Below are positions 3,828 to 49,841 of a stretch of 64,000 bases of DNA, piece by piece. This DNA is from a virus: positions 98 to 64,097 of the IMG/VR virus record IMGVR_UViG_3300050499_000294. The stretch is one strand, 5' to 3'. Both the position numbers and the translations under genes were made by a program. Positions within the stretch are counted from its first letter, which is position 1, and each line of letters opens with the position of its first letter. Below the pieces are notes generated by a model. The model made no database searches, was not told where the DNA came from, and worked only from the letters and a program-made list of their open reading frames with translations.

Positions 3828-5317
3828 GCAAGACCTCCTTTCTGGGCGAGGGCTTCGAGCACCGTCACACGCTCGGCCAATTGCTCTTTCTCCTGGCGCA
3901 CCGTCTCCAGGAGCTGATACACCGTTTTGAGCGCATTGAGGAGCAGGTACGGCAGGGCCTCGGTATCGAGCGCCAGGAGGTCCGTCTCCTCGCTGTTAGG
4001 CGTCAGCACGCCCCGGCGACTCGTCACCATATAGGGCGCCACAGCCTGCACGACTTGCGCCCGCAGGCCGATGTGCCGCTGGCGCGTAATCGGGATGCCG
4101 CCCTGGCCGTTATAGCGAAACCAGATCGGATCGAGCGCCAGGAGCACCTCAAGCCCCTCCACAAACGGCTCGATATCCTTTTTGAGCCGTTCGTCTGAGG
4201 GACTGAGCCAACTGCCGCCACCCGGTTTGGTCGCTGTGCCGGTAATCATCAAATTGCCGCTATTATCGGTCCGCTGCACGACCGTCCCGGTTTTGTTCAG
4301 GGTTTCCACGGCCTCGCCGCTGCCCATCTGGAGGAGGAGTGCACCGTCGTCACTTAAGACGCGCACGGCTGAGGCATTCGTGACGCCCGCGTCCCGGATT
4401 TCAAAATCGGTCCCGGTAATGGCGGTGGCTTTGACGATGATCAGCCGCCCGCTCGTGGGGGTTACGAAGGTCATGACCACGTCATGCGAATTCGGATCTA
4501 CTGTAATGCTGTTGGGCAGCAGGCTCTGGCGCGGACTCGCGTTGTCATAGACAGCAAAGAGCAACGCGGACGTCCCGAGCCCATGCGTGGCGCCGGGCAC
4601 GCTCACCGTCGTGGCACTGGCAAAGGTGGCCACAAACCGTGGGCCGGCCGCACTGACAATGATCGTGCCACTCGCAGGCGTGACAAAAGTGACTGTTACA
4701 TCCGCCGTCGCCGGGGCAATACTGACGGGCACCTGCGTCAGGATATTCTGGCTGCCGCTCACGGTATAGACGCGTACGAGGAGGTCTGCAGTCCCCAGGG
4801 CGTGCGTACTGCCGGGAATACTCACGGTCGTCTGATTGGTAAAGGACACCGTATATTGCGGACTCGGCGCCGCGAGACTGATGATCCCCGTTTGCGGCGT
4901 GAGGAAGGTAAACGTGGCATCATAGGTGAGCGTATCAATGGCTACGGTATTGGGCTGAATCACCTGGCGCGGGGTTTCCGCATTGTACGCCTGGAAAAGC
5001 GGTGCGGGCGTGCCGAGGCGATGCGTGGTCCCCGCAATGGTGACGCTCGTGGTGGCATTGAAGGTAAAAAAGAGCGGGCTCTCGCCACCCCCAGGGAGAA
5101 ACTGCTGGAGCCGCGCGGCGAGCGAGCCAAACGTGCCTTGCGGATTGGAGCCGAGGACCGTCTGGACCGCGACCATGGCCGCCAAGGCATCGTTGATGAC
5201 TTCCGAATCCAGGCGACTGGCACTATCGGGAGCCATCGGCGGCGCATTGATAAACGTCTGCCGTGTGTCGATGACTCCTGGGTAGCCAGTCCCGATTCCC
5301 GCGCCGAGTTGAGCCAC
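3824..5317 (-). CDS. Tail fibre with C-terminal peptidase S74 intramolecular chaperone
   Basis: SDERLKKDIEP...IWFRYN...HIGLRAQVVQAVAP...C-terminal coiled coil; three internal repeats of about 70 aa. Confidence 0.85.
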   Translation of the reverse strand: MAQLGAGIGTGYPGVIDTRQTFINAPPMAPDSASRLDSEVINDALAAMVAVQTVLGSNPQGTFGSLAARLQQFLPGGGESPLFFTFNATTSVTIAGTTHRLGTPAPLFQAYNAETPRQVIQPNTVAIDTLTYDATFTFLTPQTGIISLAAPSPQYTVSFTNQTTVSIPGSTHALGTADLLVRVYTVSGSQNILTQVPVSIAPATADVTVTFVTPASGTIIVSAAGPRFVATFASATTVSVPGATHGLGTSALLFAVYDNASPRQSLLPNSITVDPNSHDVVMTFVTPTSGRLIIVKATAITGTDFEIRDAGVTNASAVRVLSDDGALLLQMGSGEAVETLNKTGTVVQRTDNSGNLMITGTATKPGGGSWLSPSDERLKKDIEPFVEGLEVLLALDPIWFRYNGQGGIPITRQRHIGLRAQVVQAVAPYMVTSRRGVLTPNSEETDLLALDTEALPYLLLNALKTVYQLLETVRQEKEQLAERVTVLEALAQKGGLA

Positions 5318-5353
5318 TTTAAACTCTCTTCTTACAAACTATGTTGTGTCATA

Positions 5354-5680
5354 TTAAGACTGTACTTTCAAGGCTTCGAGGGCCTCCACCCGCGTCGTCA
5401 GTGCCGCCACCTGCTCCGCCAGCGTCGTCAGCGTCACGCCTGTCCCAGTGAGAGAGGGACCCTGCGGCTGGAGGGTACGCGGGCGGACGTCCTGGACCAC
5501 CTGGTCCCCCAGCACGCGCCACTGCTCCTGCATGCGGGACGGCGCCGTCTCGTCGCGGATGAGATACCCATAGCCGGGCTCGTCCGCGCCGCGCTGGGCT
5601 TCCAGAAAGACCCGCGCATTACTTTCCCAGAGCCCGACAATGGTCCCGTCATCCGTGCGGTATTTGACCAGATAGGCCAT
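5354..5680 (-). CDS. Hypothetical tail-associated protein with C-terminal coiled coil
   Basis: Co-oriented between tip protein and fibre; LAEQVAALTTRVEALE. Confidence 0.65.
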   Translation of the reverse strand: MAYLVKYRTDDGTIVGLWESNARVFLEAQRGADEPGYGYLIRDETAPSRMQEQWRVLGDQVVQDVRPRTLQPQGPSLTGTGVTLTTLAEQVAALTTRVEALEALKVQS

Positions 5681-5683
5681 ACG

Positions 5684-8600
5684 CTAGCGCTGCCTCCGAA
5701 AGCCGACCATCTTGATATGATCGGCGCCGATGGAATTCCCGGCCACGCCTCCATTCTTAAACGTGCCCACAAAGGCTTTCGTCCCGCTAAAGCCACTGGG
5801 GGCGGTATAGACGCCCTGGCACACCATCGTACTGCGCCCCGGGTTATTCGTTTGGCCATACGCGAGTTCTGGCGACCCCGAAGCCGCGCTATTTTCCCGA
5901 ACGCGCAGCTCACACGCGTCGTCGAGCGTGGCCACGCTCACGGTGGCGGTGAGGGTCACCCAGACTTGATCGCCCTCGTTCAAATCAAACACAAGCGACG
6001 CCAGCGCCGTCTCACTGATCGTCACACTGAGCCCCACAATGTCCGTATACGACACGCTGTTGGTGACGGCGTTGACGTAGATCTTCTCCGTGACGACCGC
6101 GGACGGGGCAATGCCGGGCGTTTGCGCCCCGGTCTCCGGGCTCCACATGAGGGAGCCATCCGCGTGGTAAATCAGGATGCTATAGTTGGTCGGCCCTGCC
6201 GCAATCCGCCCAATCCAGACGCGAATCGTGCCGTTATCGTCCCGGAGAATGATCTGGCGATTGACGCCGTCAAGGACAATCGGGGCAATGGATCCGGCTA
6301 CCGGCCCCCCCAGGAACACCTGCGCGTTAATCGTGCCCGCAATGATTTTGTCAGCAGCCAGGTCCAGAATATGCGCATTGCGGATCAGCGCATCTTGGAT
6401 TTGAGCCACGCCCGTAATGACCGCCGTATCGGTGCGCAGATGCCCCGCATTAATGACCCCGGTTTTAATTCCGGCTGCCGTGACACCGCTCTCATTCGCG
6501 TCAAACATGAGGCCGCCGCCACTATTAAAAATCTGAATGCCGTACTGATCCGAGAGCGGCCCGAGCTTCCCCAAGAGGACGCGGTTATTGCCCAGGTACT
6601 GATCGCGGATGACCATCAGACTATTGGTGCCATCAATATAGACGCGATCCGCCACGCCAATACTGACCAGCGCCGTGAGCTTCCCGGTAAGGATTTTGGT
6701 CGCCACCAGGGAGCTAATGAAGGTGTCGTCCAGTTGCCCAGCGACGGCCGTCACCCCTGCCGTGGCCGAGACGGGGTGAAACGGCCCAATATTGCCCGAG
6801 GTATCTACTGGACGAATCCAATAATAGGCCCGCTGATTGGCGACAAACCCCGTATGTTCAAAGCTGTAGCTGCCTTGCCCAATCACCCCAGCCGTGCTGC
6901 GATCGTTGAGCCCCGACGTCCAGACCTCACAGTAGTCGTAATCCAGATCGCCCGGCGGCGTCCAGAGCAGCGCAATCTTTTGCACGGTGCCGACGGCATA
7001 GAGGTTCGCGGCGGCGCTCGGTGGCGTCCCATCGCGGCCCGTCGTAATGGACACCTCGGGATCGGTAAACGCACTGAGATTCGCCAGGCGATCAATCGCG
7101 GCAATTTTGGCAAAGACCGTCACATTGCCGGGGACAAAAATTTTGTAGGTACTATCAAACCGTCCCGGCTGCACGACGGTCGGGATGTTGGGTGATGCCA
7201 CCCGAAACACGAGTTGAAAGCCGTTGAGATCCTCTTCTCCCTGGGGGTTCCAGTGCGCCTGCACCCAGGTCATCACCGTCCCGTCCGCACTGGCATCCGT
7301 CCCCGTCGTAAGGCGGAGGCCGGTCGGCACGGCTGGTGGCGTATTGTCCAGTTTGTCGGCCGTGAGGGCCACGGGCGTAAAGGAGGCAATGGCACTCGGA
7401 ATGCCAATGCCAAACGAGTCATAGGGAATAATCTGGACATAATAGGTGATGCCCGCGAGCAGATCCGGAATGAGCAGCACCTGGAAATCAATGCCGACCG
7501 TCTGATTAGGGATCGTGGGCGGGTTCCCGGCATCGAGTAACACCAGGAAATGATCAAAATCCCGCGGGCGGATCCATTGTTTCCAATCAATCCGCACCGC
7601 CTCAAAGAGCGCCTGGGCTTCCGGTAAGATATTACTCATGTCGGGCGGCGCATTGGTCACGACGATCACCGCAGGATCGAGCGACAAGAGCCCGGTATTG
7701 GTGACTGCCCACACCATCACCTGGAGATCGCGTCGCGCCCCGGCGTAGCCGCTGCGAATCTGGTCTTCTTCGTTTTGCTGATGGGTATACGTCCACTGCA
7801 CGCTCTGGCCTGCGGGCGCCAGGGCCGCATTATAGGCCCGCAGCAAGTAGAGTTGCCCCGGCGCCCAGACTTGCACCACGTAGAAGGCCACAAAAAACGT
7901 CTCGCTAAAGAGCGGGCTATCCGCCACCGCATCCCACTCGACATGCAGGTCCCGGCCTTCCCACAGGGACACGCCCACGGCCTGGCCCTGGAGACGCAAG
8001 TTCCGCGGCGTCGCGGGGAAGTAGCCGGGCGTCGTGGGGCCGGCAATATGAATGACGACTTCCCGCGCACCGATATTATTGGGGACCCCCAGGTGCGAGA
8101 TGGGGACGACGCGGTACTGATACGTCGAGCCACTAATGGCCGTATAGTCATCCCAATCCAGCACATGCCCCCGGACCTGGGTGAGCGGCGTATAGTTATA
8201 GTTGGGGTCATTGGGGTCACTAATCGCTCCGGCGCCAATCGTCCCGGCCTCCACCTGCCCCATTTGCCCCGTCGCCAGGAGCACGCGGCGCAAGATCATG
8301 GCGCCCCCGTAGAGCGCATAGCCACTACTCAAGGGGGCGACGTCCCATGAGAGATTAATGACGCGCAGACTCGCGCCGCTCGTCTGAATCCGCGTCACTT
8401 CGGTTGCCACGAGCGAGAGGAGCGGCGGCGGCGGGCCTTCCGGGTTAAAGAGCGTCGTAATGACCCCCAGCGGCGACGCCACGGCCTCATCATAGATGCT
8501 CGGGTTGTGAATCAGCGCTTCGAGACTCACGGTCAAATCATTTTTGCGCCGCAGACTGGTCACCCGGAACGTGCGCGTATTGGCATTGGTGGCCAGCGTC

Positions 8601-10981
8601 CCAAACATGAACGTGGAGGTGCGCGGGACCGGAAAGAAACTGAGCTGCGCGGCCAGATGGAGCGTGCGCGTCGGGCCCAACGTGATGGTCAGGACCTCGC
8701 GGGCTTCGAGCGTATCGTCCTCATGACGCACGTACACGACATACGTGAGGTCCTGCTCAAAGAGGCAATCTTCATCGACGTGGAGGATGGCGGCATCGGA
8801 GCCTTGCTGGATGCGCCCGGACGTGCCCCAGCCCGGCAAGGGATGGGCAAAGCGAAAGAGATCATGCATCTGCAGCGGCAGCGCTTCCAGGGAACAGTCC
8901 ATCTCCAGGAGCACATTTTCAAAGCGCCGCCGATTGAGTTCATACTGGAGGGCGCGCATGACCCGGCTTGGCTTGGTCACGCCGCGCAAATCAAAGCTGT
9001 GCTTATGGACCTCAGGGGGCCAGTTGGCCAGCGTCGGCCAGGTAATGACGTCTTGCTCAAAGTCCTGATCTTCACTGGCAAAGCGCGCCTCCACGACGTT
9101 AATGGCGTCCACGTCCTGGATATAGGTGAGGCGCACATTCGTCACGGAGGTCCAGGAGAGGAGACACGTGGGCGTTTCGTCCCGCGTCGGGCGTGGTGTC
9201 CAGAGCCCGGCCGTTTTGAGGAGAATGCCGCGCGATCCGCCCATGGTTTCTAAGAAAAATTGCTGCGCCCGCGTTTCGCGGTCCAGCACGTAATTCAGCG
9301 TATGGCGCCGCTCACCCTGCATTTGCTGGTCACAATAGGCGGCGTAGAGGGCAAAGGCGGTGAGGTCCACCTCGCTATCTGGCACCCCCGTCCCATAGCG
9401 CCGATTGGTGAGCGCATCGAGCACACACCAGGCGGGGTTATCGGACCACGTTTCCGGGACCGCGAGGGAGCCCACGCGCACCTGACGCCCCCGCACCTCG
9501 ACCGTGATATTGGGTAAGGCCCCCCGCAAGGCATCGGTAGCCAGTGCGCGCAAGCCCAGCCAGGCCGTGTACGGATAGGCATACGTATCCGGGACGTATT
9601 CGGTCACACTTTCCAGGATACTCTTATACCGTGCCCGGAGTTCGTCCGTATTCCCCGCGCGGAGGTGCTGAATCTGAATATCGTAGGCTTGATACGGGAG
9701 CCCTTCGCGGCGGATCCCCAGGCGCACCGCCGCCGTGCGGTCGGCATTGACCTGAAAGGGCGTCCACGCGGACCAACTGCCCGTGCCGCGCGGCGCATAG
9801 CGATACTGGAGCACGGCATTATTGCTGTGCTTTTCGCCCTTGTCGTTGAGAAAATACAAGCCCTCGGGCCAGGCCAGGTTGAGGACAAAGGCATGCAACG
9901 CGGCGTTGGAGGTATAGGTGAGGGGGCTCTCGCCGATGTCGCGGCCGTCGGCAAACGTGTTGCGCGCCCCGCCAAACTCGGCAAAGGCCGGTTGATTGGC
10001 CGTGCCGAGGCCGGTATAGACCTGCACGCCCGGAAAGTTGGCCACGGGTTGGCCATTAATCTGAATCGTGTCCGTCAGGATGGCCTCAATCGGGCCTTCA
10101 CAGAGCCCGATCATGAGCGTCAGCGTGGGCGGATTGGTGATGGCCTGGTAGTTGCGCGAGCCCTGATTGTAGAGCATGGCCGTGCCGCCGCCCTGGTAAG
10201 GATGCGTGATACCCACGGCCCACGAGCTATCGAGGACAAACGTATCCGCATCGCCCACGTGAATCGCCCAGGTGGTATTTACTTCTGTTTTGCCTTGAAC
10301 GCCCTGGATCAACACAATCTGGCCCGTGACAAAGCCGTGATTGGGGGCGGTCACATACACAATGTCCGAGGGTTCCCCGTGCGTGACGTCACTAATCGTA
10401 GCGGTGTGGGCCGTGGTGCCATCGTCCACGACGACGGCGGCTTGATCGACAGTGGCCAGGAGGAGTTGCCCGCCAATGCGGTGGCGACCATACACGACCG
10501 GGACGACGGCGCCCGGCCCCACGGCGGTGCGAATCCCCTCAAAGCTAAAGGTGCGTTCGGCCTCGCCGCTCATCTGGTTTTGCTGCGGCAGCAGGAGCGG
10601 CTTCGGACGAAAGAGAAAATGGGACGCCGCCGAAACCGCGAGGCCGACCAGCAACGAGATACCAATCCCAATCAACGTCGCCGGTTCGCCCCACGTCGGC
10701 CAGAGCCAGAGTTCATCCCCGGCCTTCGGCACGTAGCGCGCGTAATGCTCAGGCAGGATCGTGGCCCCGTTCACGGTGACATGCCGCAAGTCTTCGCCCT
10801 CGGGCAGATAGGCATCGAGCGGATCGCCTGCCGGAAAGACCTCCCGCTGCACGCGCAAGTGTCCATCGGCGGCCCGCAGGGGCGACAGGACCAGGATACA
10901 GGTAACGGTGGCTACAGGAGCCGCCGCAACCGCGCAATCTGCATCAGGCGGGGCGCCCAACGCTTCGTCAACTCCATACAT
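5684..10981 (-). CDS. Tail tip/host-specificity protein (lambda gpI-gpJ-like fusion, FN3-like domains)
   Basis: 1765 aa; VPVVYGRHRIGG, GLCEGPI, WSDNPAWCVLDALTNRRYG motifs; position after the NlpC gene. Confidence 0.9.
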   Translation of the reverse strand: MYGVDEALGAPPDADCAVAAAPVATVTCILVLSPLRAADGHLRVQREVFPAGDPLDAYLPEGEDLRHVTVNGATILPEHYARYVPKAGDELWLWPTWGEPATLIGIGISLLVGLAVSAASHFLFRPKPLLLPQQNQMSGEAERTFSFEGIRTAVGPGAVVPVVYGRHRIGGQLLLATVDQAAVVVDDGTTAHTATISDVTHGEPSDIVYVTAPNHGFVTGQIVLIQGVQGKTEVNTTWAIHVGDADTFVLDSSWAVGITHPYQGGGTAMLYNQGSRNYQAITNPPTLTLMIGLCEGPIEAILTDTIQINGQPVANFPGVQVYTGLGTANQPAFAEFGGARNTFADGRDIGESPLTYTSNAALHAFVLNLAWPEGLYFLNDKGEKHSNNAVLQYRYAPRGTGSWSAWTPFQVNADRTAAVRLGIRREGLPYQAYDIQIQHLRAGNTDELRARYKSILESVTEYVPDTYAYPYTAWLGLRALATDALRGALPNITVEVRGRQVRVGSLAVPETWSDNPAWCVLDALTNRRYGTGVPDSEVDLTAFALYAAYCDQQMQGERRHTLNYVLDRETRAQQFFLETMGGSRGILLKTAGLWTPRPTRDETPTCLLSWTSVTNVRLTYIQDVDAINVVEARFASEDQDFEQDVITWPTLANWPPEVHKHSFDLRGVTKPSRVMRALQYELNRRRFENVLLEMDCSLEALPLQMHDLFRFAHPLPGWGTSGRIQQGSDAAILHVDEDCLFEQDLTYVVYVRHEDDTLEAREVLTITLGPTRTLHLAAQLSFFPVPRTSTFMFGTLATNANTRTFRVTSLRRKNDLTVSLEALIHNPSIYDEAVASPLGVITTLFNPEGPPPPLLSLVATEVTRIQTSGASLRVINLSWDVAPLSSGYALYGGAMILRRVLLATGQMGQVEAGTIGAGAISDPNDPNYNYTPLTQVRGHVLDWDDYTAISGSTYQYRVVPISHLGVPNNIGAREVVIHIAGPTTPGYFPATPRNLRLQGQAVGVSLWEGRDLHVEWDAVADSPLFSETFFVAFYVVQVWAPGQLYLLRAYNAALAPAGQSVQWTYTHQQNEEDQIRSGYAGARRDLQVMVWAVTNTGLLSLDPAVIVVTNAPPDMSNILPEAQALFEAVRIDWKQWIRPRDFDHFLVLLDAGNPPTIPNQTVGIDFQVLLIPDLLAGITYYVQIIPYDSFGIGIPSAIASFTPVALTADKLDNTPPAVPTGLRLTTGTDASADGTVMTWVQAHWNPQGEEDLNGFQLVFRVASPNIPTVVQPGRFDSTYKIFVPGNVTVFAKIAAIDRLANLSAFTDPEVSITTGRDGTPPSAAANLYAVGTVQKIALLWTPPGDLDYDYCEVWTSGLNDRSTAGVIGQGSYSFEHTGFVANQRAYYWIRPVDTSGNIGPFHPVSATAGVTAVAGQLDDTFISSLVATKILTGKLTALVSIGVADRVYIDGTNSLMVIRDQYLGNNRVLLGKLGPLSDQYGIQIFNSGGGLMFDANESGVTAAGIKTGVINAGHLRTDTAVITGVAQIQDALIRNAHILDLAADKIIAGTINAQVFLGGPVAGSIAPIVLDGVNRQIILRDDNGTIRVWIGRIAAGPTNYSILIYHADGSLMWSPETGAQTPGIAPSAVVTEKIYVNAVTNSVSYTDIVGLSVTISETALASLVFDLNEGDQVWVTLTATVSVATLDDACELRVRENSAASGSPELAYGQTNNPGRSTMVCQGVYTAPSGFSGTKAFVGTFKNGGVAGNSIGADHIKMVGFRRQR

Positions 10982-47878: not shown

Positions 47879-48147
47879 CGACCGCCTCCTCGGGGAATAG
47901 ACGCACCAAGAGCAAGTCTCTTCTCTCTAGGAGAGAGAGTAGGGATGGGGTGAGATGGGCGTGCTCGACGTGCGCGAGCCAAGAGGGCGGTTGAGGCCCC
48001 CTCGCCACTGTGGCGCCCAAGCCAAACGCAAGACCAACGGTCAAAGCGGATACCACAGAACAGAATCAAATACGCCCTACTAGTGTGCGAGAGACGGAGG
48101 GGGGATGTCAAGCGAAAAAGGAAGGCGGAAGAGGCGGGAAGCCGCAG

Positions 48148-48363
48148 TTACGCCTCCGTCAAACCAAGCAGATAATCGGTACTCACCTTGAGTGCCGACG
48201 CCAAGCGCACAAAGCGCGGCAGATTCGGCATCGCTGTCCCACGCTCATACTTACTAATATCCGTCTTAAAGACCTGCGCCTTTCCAGCAAGGGCTTCCTG
48301 GCTCAGATCGGCCCGCCGCCGCGCCAGTAACAGGCGCTCCTGAAAGATATGCAATCGCTCCAT
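48148..48363 (-). CDS. XRE-family HTH repressor/Cro-like protein
   Basis: LSQEALAGKAQVFKTDISKYERG...LASALKVSTDYLLG. Confidence 0.9.
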   Translation of the reverse strand: MERLHIFQERLLLARRRADLSQEALAGKAQVFKTDISKYERGTAMPNLPRFVRLASALKVSTDYLLGLTEA

Positions 48364-48381
48364 GTCGTACCTCCTGTATCA

Positions 48382-48410
48382 AGAATACCAAAAAGTGAAA
48401 TTATTTTCAA
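48382..48410 (-). promoter_or_regulatory. Sigma70-type promoter for the XRE gene
   Basis: TTGAAA-17 nt-TATTCT on the minus strand. Confidence 0.65.
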
Positions 48411-48438
48411 GTTTTAATTCTTTGTTGCTCTTTTCTGC

Positions 48439-48467
48439 TTGCCAATGTAAGCGAAGTCAGCTATACT
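48439..48467 (+). promoter_or_regulatory. Sigma70-type promoter of the early operon
   Basis: TTGCCA-17 nt-TATACT, back-to-back with the repressor promoter. Confidence 0.7.
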
Positions 48468-48665
48468 AGTAATCAGTTGGTTGGTTGATTGACAAGGCGA
48501 TGGGCGCTACAGAGTTGAGTACCTCATGTGTGCCGGCACTTAAGAAACCGGGGAGGGAAAGACAGAGCCAGGGCGAGAACGGGAACAGACCCCCGGAAGG
48601 CTACTGAAGACAAACGCCCCACCAGGAGAGCATTGAACGCGACGATCCTGGCGACGAGAGACAAC

Positions 48666-48715
48666 GGTGTCTGAGGCTGTGGGCCTCACTGACGAGTTGG
48701 AAACAACGAAACACC
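48666..48715 (+). ncRNA. Hammerhead ribozyme (type III)
   Basis: GGTG-TC^, stem I TGAGGC/GCCTCA, core CTGACGA, stem II GTTG-GAAA-CAAC, GAAA, stem III CACC; predicted cleavage after C48671. Confidence 0.9.
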
Positions 48716-48730
48716 AAGGAGAATGAGACG

Positions 48731-48940
48731 ATGACCACCACAACCCTCGACACCACCATTGCCCGCATCCTGACGGCCCTCGACAACGATTCAACGACCT
48801 GTATGGCCGTGCTGGAGGAGGTCCAGGCCTACCGCTGGGCGCATCCGTCTGATGGTGTGGCGGACGCGATCACCGACGCCGTGCGCACCTGGCATGCCGC
48901 GTATGCACGCCGGATGCAGGAATGGTGGAGGCAGGTGTGA
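48731..48940 (+). CDS. Small hypothetical early protein between the two ribozymes
   Basis: RBS AAGGAG; 69 aa. Confidence 0.7.
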   Translation: MTTTTLDTTIARILTALDNDSTTCMAVLEEVQAYRWAHPSDGVADAITDAVRTWHAAYARRMQEWWRQV

Positions 48941-49000
48941 GACGACCCCGGAAAACGACCAGACGACCCACGGTAACGCCTGTGTATGTCCCTGAATAAC

Positions 49001-49066
49001 GCAGAGTGCGCCAGCCCCACGCTGGCGGAATGCGGCCCCGCACGGTGCGGGACGGTCACAAGCCCG
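49001..49066 (+). ncRNA. Twister ribozyme (P5-type permutation)
   Basis: GCA-GAGTG-P1(CGCCAGC/GCTGGCG)-G^AA-TGC-GGCC-P3-CGG-TCACAAGC-CCG; CAC/GTG pseudoknot complementary; predicted cleavage 49028/49029. Confidence 0.85.
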
Positions 49067-49088
49067 AACAACCAAGGAGACACGAACC

Positions 49089-49283
49089 ATGATTCACGTA
49101 AACACGCGCCAGTACGAAGTCTGCCACGGCCACACGCCCCGGCAACCCCGCGGCGCACCGACGGCTTTGTGGGCCATCCAGATCGATGACGATCCGGCCC
49201 CGCGCTATCTCCGCATGCACCTCCGGGACGCGATCGCCCAAGCCAAAGCCTGGGCGACGACCTCCATCACCATTCTCCCCTAA
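49089..49283 (+). CDS. Small hypothetical early protein
   Basis: RBS AAGGAG directly after the twister. Confidence 0.65.
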   Translation: MIHVNTRQYEVCHGHTPRQPRGAPTALWAIQIDDDPAPRYLRMHLRDAIAQAKAWATTSITILP

Positions 49284-49307
49284 CCGCACCACCAAGGAGA
49301 CACGACC

Positions 49308-49841
49308 ATGACGATCACCCAGTTTGACACCGACCTCCGCGCCCTGGCTGAGCGGGCCAGCACCAAGTACCCTGCCGATACGAAGCGCATCGCCAAAGCG
49401 CTCCTCCTCGCCCTGAACGGCCATGTCCACGTCAACCCCGATAGCACCTGTGTCGTCACCTCGCAGGCAGACCCGGAGGTGGTCTACCGGGTCGCGCACG
49501 GCACGTGCGACTGTCCCGATGCCGTGCAGCATCCAGAGACGGCCTGCAAACATCGCTATGCCGCCGCGATGGTCAAACGCGCGCAGCGCCCCCGCATCAC
49601 CTATCGGGCGACGTACAAGGGCGACCAGGGCCAGGCGATCCGCGACGAGCAGATGCGCGTGTGGTTTCAGAGCGATGCCACGGATGAGGTCACGCGCCTG
49701 TATGACCACGACCGAGCCAATCTGCAACTTCATGGGCACCTGGGGTTAGTGGCCGAAGCCAAGCTGGCAGATCTTCAGCAAGGCGCGGACCTTGCTCGCC
49801 TTGAGGCCCACAAGACCGAGGCAACTATCCTCAACGCCTAG
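49308..49841 (+). CDS. SWIM zinc-finger-like protein
   Basis: GTCDCPD...ACKHRYAA. Confidence 0.7.
   Translation: MTITQFDTDLRALAERASTKYPADTKRIAKALLLALNGHVHVNPDSTCVVTSQADPEVVYRVAHGTCDCPDAVQHPETACKHRYAAAMVKRAQRPRITYRATYKGDQGQAIRDEQMRVWFQSDATDEVTRLYDHDRANLQLHGHLGLVAEAKLADLQQGADLARLEAHKTEATILNA

Follow-up and report, generated by a model that had tools for sequence, protein, structure and literature searches.

We identified a type-P5 twister ribozyme at positions 49000-49067 on the plus strand of the window, the 64,000-nucleotide stretch of viral DNA analysed here, which comprises nearly the whole of a 64,380-base IMG/VR provirus record. The element belongs to the Twister-P5 family by Rfam's own cut-off and its core is intact, and we consider it probable that the ribozyme is active and would split the polycistronic RNA transcribed rightward from the early region of a temperate phage. 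A type-P5 twister had been proposed at this site in an earlier note, which named a cmscan search against Twister-P5 as a way to check it. When we ran cmscan with Rfam 15 over both strands of the whole window and 4227 Rfam families, Twister-P5 (RF02684, clan CL00120) gave a full-length match (model positions 1-58) with 44.9 bits and an E-value of 4.1e-6, which is above the gathering score of the family, 37.6 bits. At the curated thresholds, it was the sole Rfam family to exceed its own cut-off on either strand of the 64 kb. We also built a covariance model of our own, R1, which was trained on 24 other phage twister-P5s and does not contain P3. R1 returned a single match in the window, at the same twister site, with 34.4 bits and an E-value of 2e-6, and the lower score is explained by the absence of P3 from the model. 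The proposed class is thus borne out by both models. What is new here is one further twister-P5, and the family and the type of context were both already known; the twister class itself was reportedly described by Roth et al. in 2014.

The structural examination, by reading of the residues, located every part that the earlier note had named, namely P1, P2, P3, P4 and the conserved GAG. P2 consists of 4 bp between CGCA (49000-49003) and UGCG (49031-49034). It is followed by the L1 strand GAGUG (49004-49008), in which GAG occupies 49004-49006 and GUG (49006-49008) forms one strand of the T1 pseudoknot. The conserved active-site guanine, G49008, adjoins the P1 hairpin, whose 7 bp are formed by CGCCAGC (49009-49015) and GCUGGCG (49021-49027) around a CCCAC loop. 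When the element is aligned with the Rfam consensus (...ggU^AAUGC), the predicted scissile bond falls between G-1 and A+1 (49028/49029), with A49029, the proposed general acid, and A49030 directly 3' of it. The T2 pseudoknot pairs GC at 49035-49036 with GC at 49062-49063 in the P4 loop. The optional P3 hairpin comprises 6 bp between CCCGCA (49037-49042) and UGCGGG (49046-49051) with a CGG loop and shows up as 15 inserted nucleotides in the match to the Rfam model; a groundwater contig (L148) has the same P3. After A49052, between P3 and P4, the P4 helix of 3 bp (CGG 49053-49055 and CCG 49064-49066) encloses an 8-nt loop, UCACAAGC, and CAC at 49057-49059 within this loop completes T1. All of these features lie on the plus strand. 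P1, P2 and P4 follow each other in the P5-permuted order with every pair Watson-Crick, neither of the two catalytic residues, A49029 and G49008, is missing, and the minimum free energy fold of the isolated 68 nt consists of exactly P2, P1, P3 and P4. The element shares with the Twister-P5 family the permutation from the 3' strand of P2 to after P4, the core GCAGAG-G, AAUGC-GC and GGUC-CAAGCC, and the layout of P1, P2 and P4 with T1, T2 and an optional P3. It differs from the family in having G instead of U at position -1, and its outermost P1 position is a C-G pair adjoining GUG, whereas most phage members have A-G or G-U there.

All 13 of the 13 contigs with the locus are essentially identical, and thus no covariation could be drawn from this copy itself. 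A pattern scan of IMG/VR yielded at least 143 twister-P5 matches on at least 119 stretches, and for a covariation test we used a gapless alignment of 24 listed phage twister-P5s over five helices including both pseudoknots. In this alignment, 93.9% of the cells were paired, compared with 79.8% after shuffling and 25-42% with the partners slid. Changes on both sides of a pair were found in 58 cells, while 18 were expected after shuffling, and all six aligned P1 pairs change on both sides. T1 was 100% paired in the 24 sequences, and other model-detected loci contain the T2 variants GG/CC and AC/GU. Among the 143 matches listed, the middle pair of T1 is UA in 94, GC in 39 and AU in 5, and the GUG/CAC of the window is the commonest phage form of T1 among them. 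The CAC/GUG pairing of the earlier note is real, but it is no unusual compensatory change, as a U-A middle pair is the majority form.

With respect to the surroundings of these elements, a Shine-Dalgarno-like motif lies at most 25 nt downstream of 55% of 139 phage twister-P5s, compared with 20% of random 25-mers, indicating that phage twister-P5s typically sit immediately in front of a ribosome-binding site. We also considered a P5 helix formed from the flanks, which might mask the ribosome-binding site, and rejected it as a general feature: the flank-to-flank duplexes of 136 phage twister-P5s gave -3.3 kcal/mol and mismatched flanks -3.4 kcal/mol. The flank-to-flank duplex in the window (-8.7 kcal/mol) is unconvincing as a P5 helix, and in having no detectable P5 helix in its flanks the window twister resembles phage twister-P5s in general. 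In several contigs (L124:3754-7000 and L016:2681-5405, both on the plus strand, L103 and L111), five to seven twister-P5 copies are found per contig with a spacing of about 300-650 nt, one copy between neighbouring small genes. One of the six copies in L124 has G at -1, and its neighbours do not fit the G-1 pattern. A further twister-P5, at L038:1875-1992 on the minus strand, has a P1 loop enlarged by about 80 inserted nucleotides and a C at -1, and still scores 54.8 bits with R1.

The residue at position -1 is G49028, in place of the common U, as the earlier note had pointed out; U is the consensus base at this position and is non-essential. When we counted the -1 base in 115 distinct phage twister-P5s, which were detected with R1 at loci fetched regardless of this base, we found U in 102, C in 11, G in one and A in one, a share of about 1% for G. 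The G is both present and rare, but it deserves less weight than it was given, as it recurs in at least 16 independent natural examples. A pattern specific for G-1 found two loci besides the window in all of IMG/VR, four loci in 185,579 species genomes, of which two or three are probably due to chance, and 21 loci in JGI/ENA metagenome contigs. Together these represent 22 distinct sequences, at least 16 of which score 24-73 bits with R1, and the P1 stems of these further G-1 twister-P5s are unrelated in sequence yet well paired. The pattern hits L125, L127 and L133/L149 possess no P1 hairpin and were missed by R1, and we attributed them to chance and left them uncounted. A Shine-Dalgarno motif and a start codon were found about 10-25 nt downstream in six of the six G-1 twisters whose flanks were read. 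One G-1 locus lies on a 74-kb viral contig (L052), where the twister-P5 at 9961-10028 on the plus strand is 2 kb from about 25 tRNA genes at 5209-7859 on the minus strand.

Comparison of individual G-1 twisters with their relatives was informative. A single U-to-G change is essentially all that separates L135 (G-1) from the twisters of L012 and L075, which have U-1. In L148, G-1 is kept and the 3' 39 nt are nearly identical to those of the window twister; its P1 has an entirely different sequence that nevertheless pairs, and the genes on either side, including the one that follows the ribosome-binding site, are different ones. Contigs from two of the four rhizosphere runs compared (X1 and X2) contain a second twister with the P2, P1 and G-1 of the window, which diverges from the window at 48998 and 49034 and shows a 1-nt deletion in the P1 loop, another P3, a compensatory AC/GU T2 and another upstream context. 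The compensatory changes in L148 and in the second twister, with G-1 retained, indicate that G-1 copies are maintained.

In the CHiTA study of about 2000 natural twisters, each of the four bases was reported to be tolerated at -1 (PMC11662667), and G-1 therefore does not exclude membership of Twister-P5. The mean cleaved fraction was 0.68 for G-1 compared with about 0.76 overall, as measured on type-P1 twisters (PMC11662667). In crystal structures of the env22 twister, the -1 base is extruded and solvent-exposed, and the chemistry of twisters has been attributed to the adenine 3' of the cut site and the conserved guanine (PMC5408937). The mutational scan of Kobori and Yokobayashi covered positions other than -1 (PMC5113685). 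G-1 is thus a rare, known and tolerated natural variant that poses no mechanistic difficulty and would slow cleavage at most moderately.

A second, putative ribozyme, a candidate type III hammerhead, is located at 48664-48717 on the plus strand, 283 nt upstream of the twister and on the same strand. In a permissive Rfam scan, it matched RF00008 with 43.1 bits and an E-value of 4e-6, below the cut-off of 48.5 bits. The core is complete (CUGACGA, GAAA and the GUC triplet), stem I contains 6 bp, stem II 4 bp with a GAAA loop and stem III 5 bp, with C48671 as the last base before the predicted cut. Stem III directly adjoins the ribosome-binding site of orf69 (AAGGAG, 48716-48721). Likewise, the AAGGAG of orf64 (49074-49079, plus strand) starts 6 nt past the Rfam end of the twister at 49067, in agreement with the spacing given in the earlier note, and 7 nt past 49066, where that note had ended the element. 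Both ribozymes lie on the plus strand, which is the coding strand, each directly 5' of a ribosome-binding site.

The two ribozymes belong to what appears to be the early operon of the provirus. A divergent gene similar to XRE/HTH repressors (48148-48363, minus strand) matches Pfam HTH_19/HTH_3 with an E-value of about 1e-11 and PHROG families of transcriptional regulators and repressors, and an AT-rich region lies between it and the rightward operon. A promoter-like sequence, TTGCCA-17-TATACT, is found at 48439-48467 on the plus strand with 10 of 12 consensus matches; three promoter-like sites were found where 0.2 were expected, and there is no terminator-like site in 48100-49400. The promoter-like site is followed by a leader of about 200 nt, the hammerhead, orf69, the twister, orf64 and orf177, the three genes each with a ribosome-binding site, and then an HNH endonuclease gene. 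The orphan gene orf69 (48731-48940, plus strand, 69 codons), which lies between hammerhead and twister, has no Pfam, PHROG or Atlas match and no homologue but itself among 5.8 billion proteins. The 64-codon orf64 (ATG at 49089 to stop at 49283, plus strand), which was called in JGI contigs, would be the first gene on the predicted 3' cleavage product; sibling phages possess a homologue with 94% identity, and Pfam, PHROG and Atlas gave no lead to its function. The following orf177 (49308-49841, plus strand) has relatives in L121-L123 and L150-L157 and the same ACCAAGGAGACAC initiation context, with no ribozyme in front. Both orf64 and orf177 encode phage proteins with no assigned function. The ACCAAGGAGA translation-initiation element occurs before three consecutive early genes, at 48713-48722, 49071-49080 and 49291-49300.

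The terminase and portal genes are on the other side of the locus and on the opposite strand, the best terminase match in known phages shows less than 40% identity, and no tRNA genes were found. The same DNA is present in several rhizosphere metagenomes, and the locus was identical across the four DNA runs compared. The stretch was detected in 11 of 12 sequencing runs, nine of them apparently of rhizosphere DNA, while two wastewater runs labelled as RNA-Seq contained only 5-6% of the sampled words of the stretch; all 11 appear to be DNA metagenomes.

We then compared the locus with that of sibling phages (L150-L157 and L121), which have the same repressor, the 94% identical orf64 and orf177, and some of which occur in the samples of the window phage. 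DNA homology to the siblings ends at 48679, within stem I of the hammerhead, and resumes at 49071, three bases past the twister, and the siblings have 45 nt in place of the 391 nt between these points (48680-49070), a stretch that takes in orf69, the twister and most of the hammerhead. In a further relative, 48564 is joined directly to 49306 and 741 nt are skipped, leaving it without both ribozymes, orf69 and orf64. No Rfam ribozyme was found at E <= 0.1 in the orf177 relatives L121-L123 or the orf64 relatives L150-L158, and a pattern with the exact P1 of the window twister had no match in metagenome contigs. These breakpoints indicate that the early region is a mosaic, in which the block of hammerhead, orf69 and twister is an accessory piece that was either inserted or put in place of other DNA, and the twister seems dispensable for the operon, as close siblings manage without it. 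The breakpoints fall at the ribozymes and at the ACCAAGGAGA element, and this element, which coincides with the 3' breakpoint of the block, is a plausible recombination site.

At the place of the hammerhead, the siblings carry a 65-nt element with a layout like that of a type-P1 twister (L150:2924-2988, plus strand; also in L121 and L152-L157). It contains P1 (GGUG/CACC), U^AA, P2 (UGAG/CUCA), P3, and P4 with an 8-nt loop, together with T1 (UGA/UCA) and T2 (CC/GG). An A replaces the conserved guanine next to P1, a loop reads CA instead of AA, and Rfam gives only 14 bits (twister-P3, E-value 6.7). Its outer helices are common to stems III and I of the window hammerhead. We suggest that this element represents a twister that has either decayed or diverged.

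For the window twister, we infer from sequence its co-transcription with the neighbouring genes, its cleavage and any effect on expression, and we suggest the following course of events. Transcription would start near 48467 and proceed through the leader, the hammerhead, orf69, the twister, orf64, orf177 and onward. The twister would fold co-transcriptionally, with P2, P1, P3 and P4 locked by T1 and T2, and, through internal transesterification, would break the bond between G49028 and A49029. A 2',3'-cyclic phosphate would then terminate the upstream RNA, which closes with the GC-rich P1 hairpin, and the downstream RNA would begin with a 5'-OH followed by 39 nt of ribozyme, including the P3 and P4 hairpins, so that 45 nt would precede the ribosome-binding site of orf64. 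In combination with cleavage of the hammerhead at 48671/48672, this would give a leader, a single-gene orf69 mRNA of 357 nt (48672-49028) and a distal operon mRNA. With structured and non-standard ends on each piece, stability and translation could differ between the pieces and be uncoupled.

A twister in which the structure is intact and the catalysis crippled or very slow would act mainly as a folded spacer or a cluster of hairpins before the ribosome-binding site and would be in the process of decay, like the degenerate twister-like element of the siblings. We regard this as rather unlikely, although G-1 is strongly under-represented (one of 115 phage twister-P5s, against 102 with U and 11 with C), its mean cleavage in CHiTA is slightly lower at 0.68 (PMC11662667), and the loss of consensus bases in the twister-like element of the siblings, at the neighbouring junction, suggests that such ribozymes may decay in the lineage. 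All other conserved positions of the window twister fit the consensus, the persistence of G-1 with compensatory changes in P1 and T2 (L148 and the second metagenome twister) is a signature of selection on a working fold, and a base that is extruded and solvent-exposed in crystal structures (PMC5408937) argues against such a defect. That GC-rich DNA resembles a twister here by chance, with no ribozyme present at all, seems extremely improbable to us. The folding energy would allow it, with z-scores of -0.9 for the 68 nt (not significant) and 0.0, and so would the G+C content of the region, 75%. The z-scores are uninformative here, as the fold energy is ordinary for such GC-rich sequence, and the case therefore rests on the covariance model and on the complementarity of the pseudoknots. 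Against chance stand an E-value of 4e-6 over 64 kb, both strands and 4227 families, the finding of only this same site by R1, the pseudoknot partners, which make no contribution to the covariance-model scores and are complementary as well, and a genetic context that is typical, beside a hammerhead.

The fate of the excised RNA and the mobility of the block also have to be considered. Hammerhead and twister cuts both leave ligase-compatible ends, and the excised 357-nt orf69 RNA might be circularised by a host RtcB-type ligase; or else the ribozyme-bounded block might be a mobile gene cassette. The presence or absence of 48680-49070 as one stretch among siblings of the same sample, with breakpoints in or at the ribozymes, is in line with these possibilities, and so is the module of twister and ribosome-binding site in common with the otherwise unrelated groundwater contig L148. 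However, ordinary recombination between copies of the ACCAAGGAGA element would account for the indel equally well, orf69 has an ordinary stop codon, and when Perreault et al. sought spliced or circular products of clustered hammerheads, they found none (PMC3088659). We consider this explanation very unlikely. A broader proposal is that the block of hammerhead, orf69 and twister is a self-contained, exchangeable expression cassette, in which the ribozymes would serve as portable insulators and as recombination sites and G-1 would mark a tuned, working sub-lineage. We put this forward as a speculation that is unlikely to be right as it stands. If it were true, the ribozymes would enable a foreign operon to express a gene that it had newly acquired.

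The env22 and Oryza sativa Osa-1-4 twisters share with the window element the expected adenine/guanine pair of the active site and the double-pseudoknot fold (PMC5408937); they differ from it in being type-P1 constructs with a U-A site, whereas the window element is of type P5 with P3 and a G-A site. The twisters without U-1 in the CHiTA study likewise have in common with it a natural G-1 in an otherwise canonical core, while that set consists of type-P1 permutations and the window element, being of type P5, apparently falls outside it (PMC11662667). As for the genetic arrangement, clustered prophage hammerheads cleave in vitro and in E. coli, and their processing of transcripts into single-gene mRNAs has been proposed (Perreault et al. 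2011, PMC3088659). In those prophages, as in the window, the ribozymes lie between consecutive small genes and bracket one gene of unknown function, and ribozymes flanking single prophage genes have accordingly been known since 2011. The bracket in the window is formed by two classes, a type III hammerhead and a type-P5 twister, unlike the all-hammerhead clusters of Perreault et al., and other ribozyme classes including twister, also in mixed combinations, have been reported in the same contexts (PMC8782182).

Based on these observations, the window adds one more securely identified phage twister, which by itself changes little. The at least 16 independent G-1 relatives represent a panel for measuring the influence of the -1 base on cleavage by P5-permuted twisters, and the co-occurring phages with and without the block provide a clean natural comparison for the effects of ribozyme cuts on phage gene expression.
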